From IMG/VR virus record IMGVR_UViG_3300020469_000008, positions 138,055 through 202,054 of that record: 64,000 nt of DNA; one strand, 5' to 3'. How positions within the stretch are numbered: the first letter of the stretch is position 1; each line of letters begins with the position of its first letter. Below, piece after piece: positions 13,771 through 57,378 of this stretch. The translations under genes and the position numbers were made by a program. Under the pieces are notes generated by a model. It did not search any database and had not been told where the DNA came from. It saw only the letters and a list, made by a program, of their open reading frames with translations. Source of the DNA: a virus. Taxonomy: Duplodnaviria > Caudoviricetes.

Positions 13771-14107
13771 GGGCCCGTAATGGTTTCGACGGGGTAGAAT
13801 CAAGGGGAGAGTGCAAGTAGGGAAGATACGCCCTTAACAGTTCAAACATAATAGTTGCAAACAATAACAACTTTTACGACGTAGCTTTAGCTGCATAATC
13901 GTGGTGGTCGTCTCAAACCATCTAACCAAGAGAGGCTTTAGCAGTTGGAACTGCCGAGAAATAAAATGACAACAGTCCTCACTCGGTCACGGAGAGGCGA
14001 ACAATACAGTGACTATCCTGTTAATCGGAGAAATGATTAGATAAGCTTGTGAATGACTCAAACTAAGACTATTGCGGACAGGGGTTCGACTCCCCTCGGG
14101 TCCACCA
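13771..14107 (+). ncRNA. ssrA: transfer-messenger RNA (tmRNA)
   Basis: 5' GGGCCCG pairs with 3' CGGGTCC giving G3.U70, then A-CCA; T-arm GGGG-TTCGACT-CCCC; tag ORF 13857-13898 ANNNNFYDVALAA*; TATAAT at 13755. Confidence 0.95.
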
Positions 14108-55460: not shown

Positions 55461-55466
55461 GAGTAA

Positions 55467-55558
55467 TTGTAAAGAATTGGTGTAGAGATTAACGCACGAG
55501 GTGTAAACCGGGAAGTGGAGCGGGTAATCTCGAGGGTGGGTAACGGGATCCTTTACAA
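55467..55558 (+). ncRNA. candidate multibranch structured RNA / G-rich element
   Basis: TTGTAAAG/CTTTACAA outer stem, GAGATTA/TAATCTC inner stem, five GGG tracts. Confidence 0.4.
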
Positions 55559-55566
55559 GATATAGA

Positions 55567-56257: not shown

Positions 56258-56539
56258 ATGACAACATTACCAAAGTATTCAAATGAACCAAACTTTGTCG
56301 GGTATCCACTGTGGTATATCATCGACGATCATAAAGCGCAATGTAATGAATGTGCTACAGTTTCAAAGTCAGAGGGCTTCACAACTTCAAAGCAGGTGAA
56401 CTGGGAAGATACAAACCTGTGGTGTGATGAGTGCAGTGAGAAGATAGAATCAGCATACGGAGAAGATCCAGATGAGAAGGAGCCTGATGATGACACTACT
56501 GAGGACTTCGATGACCCGTACATAAAAGCAAAAGAATAA
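56258..56539 (+). CDS. small Zn-finger-like phage protein
   Basis: GYPLWY...CNEC...VNWED..L.CDEC...IESAYG; ATG 56258 after GAGGAG. Confidence 0.6.
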   Translation: MTTLPKYSNEPNFVGYPLWYIIDDHKAQCNECATVSKSEGFTTSKQVNWEDTNLWCDECSEKIESAYGEDPDEKEPDDDTTEDFDDPYIKAKE

Positions 56540-56544
56540 ACTCC

Positions 56545-56671
56545 GTGGTTGGTGTTTAGCAATCTGTATACAAGGGCGCAAGGACGGCATAGGTCGACGA
56601 GGCAGCCGTATACAGATTGCGGAGAGAGAGCTGGTTACTCTCGGGAAAGGGTGGGCACATTCACCGACCAC
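56545..56671 (+). ncRNA. candidate three-way-junction structured RNA
   Basis: Outer stem 56545-54/56662-71; 13-bp stem 56559-71/56608-20; GAGAG/CTCTC hairpin 56626-42. Confidence 0.55.
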
Positions 56672-56675
56672 AAAA

Positions 56676-56704
56676 ATGTAACAACTACAATAGTGTAGTA
56701 TAAT
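56676..56704 (+). promoter_or_regulatory. phage promoter variant ATGTAA-N17-TATAAT
   Basis: Repeated motif variant. Confidence 0.65.
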
Positions 56705-56736: not shown

Positions 56737-56946
56737 ATGAATATGTACGCCAACATTATCAACCGGTTCTTTGATTACAAAGACCAAACCTACCAAATCA
56801 CTTCCGAAGTAGTTCAAGCTAACAGCCTCGCGGATGACTTTCACTCCTATCGTGTGTGTACAAACGTTAAGACAGGGAAAGTTGTCAAGTTCTTCTATGA
56901 AGAGTTCTGGAATGTGACAGCCCGAGGTTACACTGCAGAAGTGTAA
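56737..56946 (+). CDS. hypothetical protein
   Basis: SD AAGGA; stop codon is the TAA of the next GTGTAA box. Confidence 0.6.
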   Translation: MNMYANIINRFFDYKDQTYQITSEVVQANSLADDFHSYRVCTNVKTGKVVKFFYEEFWNVTARGYTAEV

Positions 56947-57003: not shown

Positions 57004-57378
57004 ATGATCTTAACTAATAACAATGAAAACATTGGAAGGTCTGATGAATACAAACAAGTGTGTGTCTGGCCCGGTATTATTATCGCAGATAATCAGATCG
57101 AAAACTTTGAAAACTACTTCAGTAAAGAAGGTTTTAGAGTTCAGTTCTTAGAATCAATACAGACAAAACCTGATCGAGACGAAAGTGGAGATGACGTAAG
57201 CGAATCCGGCGGCAGAATTGATGCAATCTTTGCAGTTCATAACGATGATGTAATGAAGTTCTCTATCCCACGCTTAGGTATGGGTATCAGGTGGATTGAG
57301 GACGTTTTAGATAATGAAGCGCGTAAAACAGAACACAGTATCTATCCAGATCGTGTCAAAGAATATAGAACTTGGTAG
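57004..57378 (+). CDS. hypothetical protein
   Basis: SD AAAGGA. Confidence 0.65.
   Translation: MILTNNNENIGRSDEYKQVCVWPGIIIADNQIENFENYFSKEGFRVQFLESIQTKPDRDESGDDVSESGGRIDAIFAVHNDDVMKFSIPRLGMGIRWIEDVLDNEARKTEHSIYPDRVKEYRTW

Follow-up and report, generated by a model that had tools for sequence, protein, structure and literature searches.

The stretch of DNA analysed here, which we call the window, is the final 64 kb of a 202-kb IMG/VR virus record. The genome carries a T4-type major capsid gene (Gp23 family, 216 bits), and Rfam and ARAGORN detect in it a tmRNA and three tRNAs; another tRNA-shaped RNA is present in the same 64-kb window. The phage tmRNA lies at window positions 13771–14107 (108.7 bits) and encodes the tag ANNNNFYDVALAA, which may be of interest here, since the element described below sits close enough to stop codons for a ribosome to reach it. 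Cultured phages are all distant from this genome: its best helicase match reaches only 36% identity, and blastn against GenBank phages returned nothing either for the genome or for the element. Between 8776 and 19133 the window also contains about a dozen genes with a near-identical 5' end (ATGAAAATAACAAGAAGACAATTAAG...), a paralogous family with a conserved N-terminus.

The element occupies positions 56545–56671 on the + strand. Upstream of it lies the gene for a small Cys-rich protein of 93 aa (56258–56539, +), which belongs to no Pfam family and has a weak PHROG match; homologs of this protein at two other loci (L107 and L063) likewise have the element after them. At loci L053, L084 and L145, homologs of the same protein sit downstream of the element instead, an illustration of how cassettes are shuffled. 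On the other side, 5 nt past the outermost helix of the element, begins the repeated phage promoter motif of the next cassette (56676–56704, +), whose gene (56737–56946, +) encodes a 69-aa protein without a family. The element occupies the whole gap from the TAA stop codon (56537–56539) to this promoter motif, as a sequence-only reading of the locus had claimed, and the three-way-junction fold that the same reading placed at 56545–56671 is borne out as well, for all of the helices it described are present.

The element is organized, from 5' to 3' on the + strand, as follows. A conserved single-stranded leader (56531–56544), A-rich and ending in an invariant CUCC, includes the last codons and the TAA of the upstream gene. 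It is conserved behind unrelated genes, and in filled sites it comes after the gene's own stop codon, so it is part of the element and not of the gene. The 5' strand of the first helix, P1 (56545–56554, G-UGGU-UGGU-G), is invariant across the family, and for reasons given below we refer to it as the 'anti-leader' strand; in the window copy it forms 10 bp, including one U–G pair, with the leader-like 3' strand (56662–56671, CACC-R-ACCAC), in which C-to-U changes occur opposite G. Between the two strands come junction J1/2 (56555–56558, UUUA); the variable and optional P2 arm (56559–56620), with a 13-bp stem (56559–56571/56608–56620), internal loops and a 4-bp tip hairpin (56585–56596); junction J2/3 (56621–56625, GGAGA, of which GG-A/U-G is conserved); P3 (56626–56642), which has a 5-bp stem (56626–56630/56638–56642) and a 7-nt loop (56631–56637, N-UGGU-N-A) with the geometry of a U-turn or an anticodon arm; and the purine-rich junction J3/1 (56643–56661), whose conserved G-rich tract ends in an invariant GGUGGG and is followed by a short variable linker.

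The minimum free energy of the window copy is −52.5 kcal/mol, compared with −33.7 ± 3.3 kcal/mol for 200 dinucleotide shuffles (z −5.7), none of which folds as well. The reverse strand also folds (−44.5 kcal/mol, z −6.3), as expected of any set of inverted repeats. On the + strand of the window, GGGTGGG words at 55534, 56649 and 62687 all fall in three structured intergenic elements, each just past a stem; the total count of this word, 4 versus about 2 expected, is not significant alone. Kinship between the three-way-junction family and the G-rich element at 55462–55562 was considered and rejected, since the latter gives no model match and folds no better than its shuffles (z −0.76).

A family of structured RNAs in marine phages

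The small flanking proteins retrieved no relatives when used as search anchors. A RadA-like gene 1 kb downstream, used as an anchor, led to 21 related loci, against which blastn and nhmmer searches with the element gave short chance words only. Searches of the whole records of these relatives located the element in two, with the 5' strand and the 3' half 91–100% identical and the middle arm different. An exact pattern for the P2 stem had no matches, because P2 is variable; a relaxed pattern, which left the stem of the small hairpin free, matched 3 viral contigs and at least 119 metagenome contigs, and from these matches about 100 distinct genuine copies were extracted. A covariance model, R1, built from 42 short-arm copies, finds 117 copies in 100 loci, including divergent ones that lie outside the search pattern. 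Copies are present in about four phage records of IMG/VR and on over 100 contigs from marine metagenomes. With R1 the window copy reaches 100.1 bits (E = 3e-23), and it is the sole copy in its 202-kb record; one relative has four copies within 14 kb, two other relatives have two each, and six other related records (106–289 kb) have none.

A 14-mer from the P1 5' strand gave mostly chance matches in viral contigs, none scoring with R1, and all six matches of the core pattern in MAGs proved to be chance, again without an R1 score. The failure of both sets of matches with R1 implies that the family does not extend beyond these marine phage contigs. A degenerate copy, L002:11617-11733 (G001:C1:69008-69122), scores only 22 bits with R1; it keeps the leader and the P1 5' strand, which are followed by a different hairpin, without the conserved 3' core, directly before a promoter. 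Several contigs (L099, L119, L146, L060, L069, L076 and L137) begin or end inside the element or exactly at it, as expected of a conserved multi-copy repeat that breaks assemblies.

Rfam gives no match over the window at the gathering score, and none for the window copy searched locally at E up to 10; ARAGORN is silent at the site, and the earlier statement that the RNA resembles no recognized family stands. Ten other copies, chosen to span all P2 types, have no match in Rfam 15 at E up to 1, ribozymes and riboswitches included. Searches of the literature by sequence and by topic found no description of the element and none of its invariant strings. An IMG/VR-based catalogue of 10,006 unnamed structured-RNA candidates (PMC10690425) draws on the same data source and contains the same kind of object, covarying intergenic phage RNAs of unassigned function; we compared it by description only, and it may include the element. 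The approximately four IMG/VR records that carry the element are few for that pipeline. We are highly confident that the element belongs to a family of structured RNAs from uncultured T4-like marine phages, one that has apparently not been described before.

A conserved fold on the + strand

On the R1 alignment, 94.8% of the base-paired cells are paired, compared with 75.5% in shuffles (0 of 500 as high) and 22–58% in slid controls. All seven basal pairs of P2 and all five pairs of P3 show compensatory changes on both sides. The R1 alignment is fitted to the structure, and the test was therefore repeated on a MAFFT alignment, from which RNAalifold independently predicts two helices, P3 with its 5 bp and P1 with its inner 7 bp. 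On this second alignment P3 covaries at four of its five pairs and is 99.5% paired (99.8% of cells on the R1 alignment). When mutual information is calculated over all pairs of columns, the top-ranking ones are exactly the P2 and P3 pairs. Homologs that failed to conserve the pairing would have told against the fold; in the 117 model matches the pairing is instead maintained by covariation.

P1 shows another pattern, with an invariant 5' strand and with variation on the 3' strand, where C-to-U changes opposite G turn G–C pairs into G–U; a single inner pair changes from G–C to A–U, in 3 copies. The seven inner pairs are essentially always formed, and the outer three, 64–74% paired, are the least conserved. 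Across all copies P1 contains 65 G–U pairs, which on the opposite strand would be A–C mismatches, and the + strand fold is the more stable one in 86 of 91 copies, by 5.6 kcal/mol on average (p = 4e-15). The pairs and the energies both favor the + strand, and a minus-strand RNA was rejected on these grounds. That the 5' strand stays invariant while the 3' strand drifts fits a second constraint on the 5' strand, one external to the helix.

P2 ranges in length from 0 to about 96 nt, falls into several recurrent module types and is missing in three copies. It differs even behind the same upstream gene, and so we regard it as an optional peripheral arm. Long P2 arms (L035, L044, L046, L040 and others) are of few module types, with conserved internal loops of their own and covarying tip hairpins; the tip of the window-type arm, CGGC/GUCG, becomes CGGC/GCCG in other copies. 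The element as a whole measures 54–152 nt. Three single strands are invariant: CUCC before P1, GG-A/U-G after P2, and GGUGGG. The idea of a G-quadruplex is weakened by divergent copies, which do not keep the G tracts as GGG; and a coding ORF was rejected, since the lengths of the copies are evenly spread modulo 3 and stop codons are frequent.

Small ribozymes usually betray themselves by a small core whose junction nucleotides are invariant, by a peripheral arm that is optional and by many intergenic copies. All of these are found here in phage genomes, and the element might conceivably be a self-cleaving ribozyme of a new kind, which would cleave polycistronic early transcripts where genes end. 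We consider this very unlikely: there is no similarity to the Rfam ribozyme models at E up to 10, and the mutual-information search for pseudoknots revealed none with covariation support.

P3 has 5 bp and a 7-nt loop, N-UGGU-N-A, in every copy. This fixed geometry, with U at loop position 2 followed by GGU, invites a different explanation, namely that the element acts in trans as a decoy or sponge. P3 would mimic an anticodon arm, or UGGU would bind the ACCA 3' ends of tRNAs, as the T-box and RNase P RNAs bind them, and the RNA would titrate a tRNA-binding factor or a defense nuclease of the host or of the phage. A phage that carries tRNA-like RNAs—the tmRNA, the tRNAs and the tRNA-shaped RNA in the window—makes such a role easier to imagine. 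Anticodon-arm geometry is restricted to P3, however; there is no T arm, neither ARAGORN nor Rfam (RF00005) calls a tRNA at E up to 10, and in the main type the loop has U at position 37. No partner protein emerged from the analysis, the RNA has no promoter of its own, and a decoy would not explain the tight link to stop codons to which we turn now. We judge it improbable.

Position behind stop codons

In nearly all of 91 distinct copies P1 begins 4–15 nt past a stop codon on the same strand, most often 5 nt past it (36 copies), and in 53 copies the stop codon is the TAA of the element's own conserved leader. The genes upstream belong to at least 14 unrelated families and those downstream, all on the same strand, to more than 30. 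A phage promoter motif follows at about 0–21 nt in 36 of the 91 copies, a Shine–Dalgarno (SD) sequence and a start codon at 13–99 nt in 49, and neither in six. The window gene at 57004–57378 exemplifies an empty site: the next start codon comes 9 nt after its end, with no element, and on five contigs its homologs are followed by the leader and the element, and then by differing cassettes. Most promoters in the window abut the preceding stop codon with no structure between the two, which indicates that the element is an extra unit and not a routine promoter–terminator stem-loop. It behaves as a portable gene-end unit, one that often supplies the stop codon and is shuffled among cassettes; we would be surprised to find this description wrong, whether in this respect or in the identity of the family.

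There is no room for a conserved promoter in front of the element, and the gene upstream is an unrelated one each time. We infer from this that the RNA is made as the 3' part of the upstream transcript, that is, as the + strand tail of the upstream gene's mRNA. The sequence-only reading had taken it for cassette cargo with an independent role, for instance as a decoy or an antitoxin. Independence is hard to reconcile with an RNA that lacks a promoter of its own and is tied to upstream stop codons, and the antitoxin example fares no better: the neighbors are unrelated from copy to copy, and the tandem repeats and fixed partner gene of RNA antitoxins, the ToxI-like type III ones included, are absent, for no repeat family covers the element. 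Two other roles can be set aside. A riboswitch, or a leader of one specific gene, is at odds with more than 30 downstream families and with a promoter that often intervenes; and an intrinsic terminator is at odds with the sequence, which has no terminator-like site at 56545–56690 and no U tract, the 3' flank being A-rich in all copies.

The nearest described system is the PeSL (promoter-early stem-loop) cassette of T4-like phages, in which short simple hairpins are read as terminators (PMC2839356, PMC4122927). Like these, the element is intergenic in hyperplastic, one-directional cassette regions of T4-like phages, lies between a gene end and an early-type promoter in 36 of the 91 copies, and is linked to gene swaps between related genomes, with empty and filled sites and different downstream cassettes. 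Unlike them, it is a three-way junction, 54–152 nt long, whose loops are invariant and which lacks a U tract; no promoter stands behind 49 of the 91 copies, and in the window most promoters are preceded by no structure.

Much of this distribution is what mobile DNA might also produce. The copies are patchy, clustered and multiple, their boundaries are precise, and contigs break at them; hairpins of single-stranded DNA tolerate G–T pairs too, and PeSL-type joints exist in T4-like phages. The element could accordingly be imagined to act in DNA alone, as a single-stranded hairpin of the REP or IS200 kind or as a recombination joint, the pairing being selected in the DNA. The orientation is always that of transcription, however, and the distance from stop codons is fixed, and a three-way junction with a strict 5-bp, 7-nt hairpin and invariant single strands is atypical of DNA elements. 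Among the neighboring genes, which were screened, no transposase or endonuclease is seen. With REP/IS200 hairpins, extragenic palindromes that a Y1 transposase mobilizes, the element shares its multiple copies after stop codons. An exclusively DNA-level role is hardly to be expected.

A proposed pairing with the leaders of cassette mRNAs

The mRNA leaders of cassettes in these phages are rich in A and C. In 789 distinct leaders from element-bearing contigs, AACCA ranks first of all 1,024 5-mers, with 481 occurrences versus 20 expected; ACCAA, TAACC, CAACC and CCAAC are also among the nine most enriched, the remainder of which represent the −10 box. AACCA is present in the leaders of 90% of genes with the promoter motif upstream, compared with 30% of others, and its usual position is −30 to −15 from the ATG. 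In the window between 53300 and 63900, and in records G001, G003 and G008, the promoter (GTG-Y-AAC, 17 nt, TATA-M-T) is nearly always followed by an AACCA-type leader and AAGGAG; five related jumbo phage records lack this promoter–leader signature.

The UGGUU of the P3 loop and the UGGU-UGGU of the P1 5' strand are complementary to the AACCA word of these leaders, and the P1 3' strand is such a leader-like word itself. ACCAACCA, the complement of the P1 5' strand, occurs four times on the + strand of the window, each time in a cassette leader, and its sole minus-strand match in the window is the P1 5' strand. Where a gene comes immediately after the element, the P1 3' strand falls at −19 to −40 relative to the ATG of that gene in about two-thirds of copies, a range that overlaps the usual position of AACCA. 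Genes placed in this way have no AACCA of their own: 0 of 33 such junctions, against a background of 30% (about 10 expected; 0.7^33 ~ 8e-6).

The leaders and the elements also occur together. A leader signature, defined as CAACCA, up to 14 nt, and AAGGA on the forward strand, is found 4–11 times per record in four of four element-bearing records and at control level in five of five relatives that lack the element, and locus-level counts agree with this split; leaders and elements share one cassette block, and the records are related and not phylogenetically independent. The co-occurrence may thus reflect a shared mobile gene pool and not an interaction.

The reading we prefer, tentatively and on the strength of sequence comparisons, is that the element is a co-transcribed gene-end RNA module that acts by pairing between leader and anti-leader. 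The anti-leader words, UGGU or UGGUU, one of them in the P3 loop and two in the P1 5' strand, would pair with AACCA-type leaders of early cassette mRNAs. In cis, P1 would itself be the anti-leader:leader duplex, its 3' strand standing where the leader motif of the next gene would otherwise be. A ribosome terminating 5 nt upstream would reach the base of P1, where the outer three pairs are the least conserved, and translation of the upstream gene could thereby loosen the mask, the outcome being translational coupling or insulation. In trans, the exposed, U-turn-like P3 loop could kiss AACCA leaders beside ribosome-binding sites. Either mode would bring with it a stable 3' cap for the upstream message.

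Leader/anti-leader pairing leaves several observations ill-fitting. A promoter follows 36 of the 91 copies, and in these the P1 3' strand would be a leader only on read-through transcripts. The loop of the divergent subtype, UGGUA, keeps just 4 nt of complementarity to the leader. A terminating ribosome would not reach as far as the inner 7 bp of P1, so that opening would be partial at best; and the invariance of GGUGGG, CUCC and GG-A/U-G is not accounted for. The GGUGGG tract, indeed, is explained by none of the possibilities raised in this paper.

A plainer account would make the element a passive or protein-recognized feature of gene ends—a 3' cap, an insulator or a processing site—and its resemblance to leaders incidental. 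It would protect the upstream cistron from 3'-to-5' exonucleases or mark an intercistronic cut, as REP elements and the RNase III sites of T7 exemplify. The stop codon directly upstream on the same strand, the very stable fold and the intercistronic or pre-promoter location, as in promoter/stem-loop cassettes, all suit this account, and the conserved single strands could be the site of a protein or a nuclease. But invariance of the loop, the junctions and the 5' strand is more than a pure cap requires, most of the window's cassette boundaries have no structure at all, and the complementarity to, and co-occurrence with, the top-ranking leader word would be coincidence. We think this account possible, if somewhat unlikely.

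Parallels for the element can be found elsewhere, as functional analogies only. REP elements stabilize the mRNA upstream of them, and Liang, Rudd and Deutscher reportedly found in 2015 that a REP within ~15 nt of a stop codon affects translation. The phage element resembles REPs in being multi-copy, structured, oriented with transcription and situated no more than 15 nt after the stop codons of unrelated genes; it differs in its complex junction fold and conserved single-stranded core, in being phage-borne, in having no RAYT-type transposase beside it, and in its complementarity to a leader motif, which is not a property of REPs. The U-turn (YUNR) loops of antisense RNAs, and anticodon loops, share with P3 the 5-bp stem, the 7-nt loop and U at position 2 (C-U-G-G in the main type), and the P3 loop likewise presents 4–5 bases predicted to pair with a frequent target word; it is embedded in an mRNA tail, however, and not in a dedicated antisense gene. 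Masked initiation regions bring about translational coupling in the RNA phage MS2 and in many operons, and there, too, a helix joins sequence past the upstream stop codon to the leader before the next start; in the element, by contrast, the SD sequence and AUG lie outside the helix, 100–150 nt of conserved structure intervenes, and 40% of copies precede a promoter. Flavivirus exoribonuclease-resistant RNAs (xrRNAs), finally, are also three-way junctions, in which a pseudoknot between the 5' flank and the junction closes a ring; pairing between the 5'-flanking CUCC and the junction GGAG is conceivable in the phage RNA. CUCC and GGAG are complementary but invariant, GGUG variants would mismatch, and sequence and Rfam similarity are lacking.

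T4-like phages are abundant in the sea, and variable gene cassettes are believed to underlie their adaptation to hosts. As an RNA element of cassette boundaries, the one described here offers a testable handle on the post-transcriptional control and the modular shuffling of phage accessory genes. It is widespread, with more than 100 copies, strong covariation, a fixed relation to stop codons and complementarity to the mRNA leader of the same lineage. The catalogue of structured RNAs gains a well-supported new family, and the element, with its compact core and optional arm, would be well suited to structural and ribozyme screens. Its mode of action, too, has a real chance of being new. It is possible, though we would not count on it, that the mobile cassette pool of these phages contains two matched parts, an AACCA early leader and a gene-end RNA that pairs with it, and that together these constitute a new kind of phage riboregulation. 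If so, the paired parts would provide translation-coupled unmasking in cis, global control of early-cassette translation in trans, or both.
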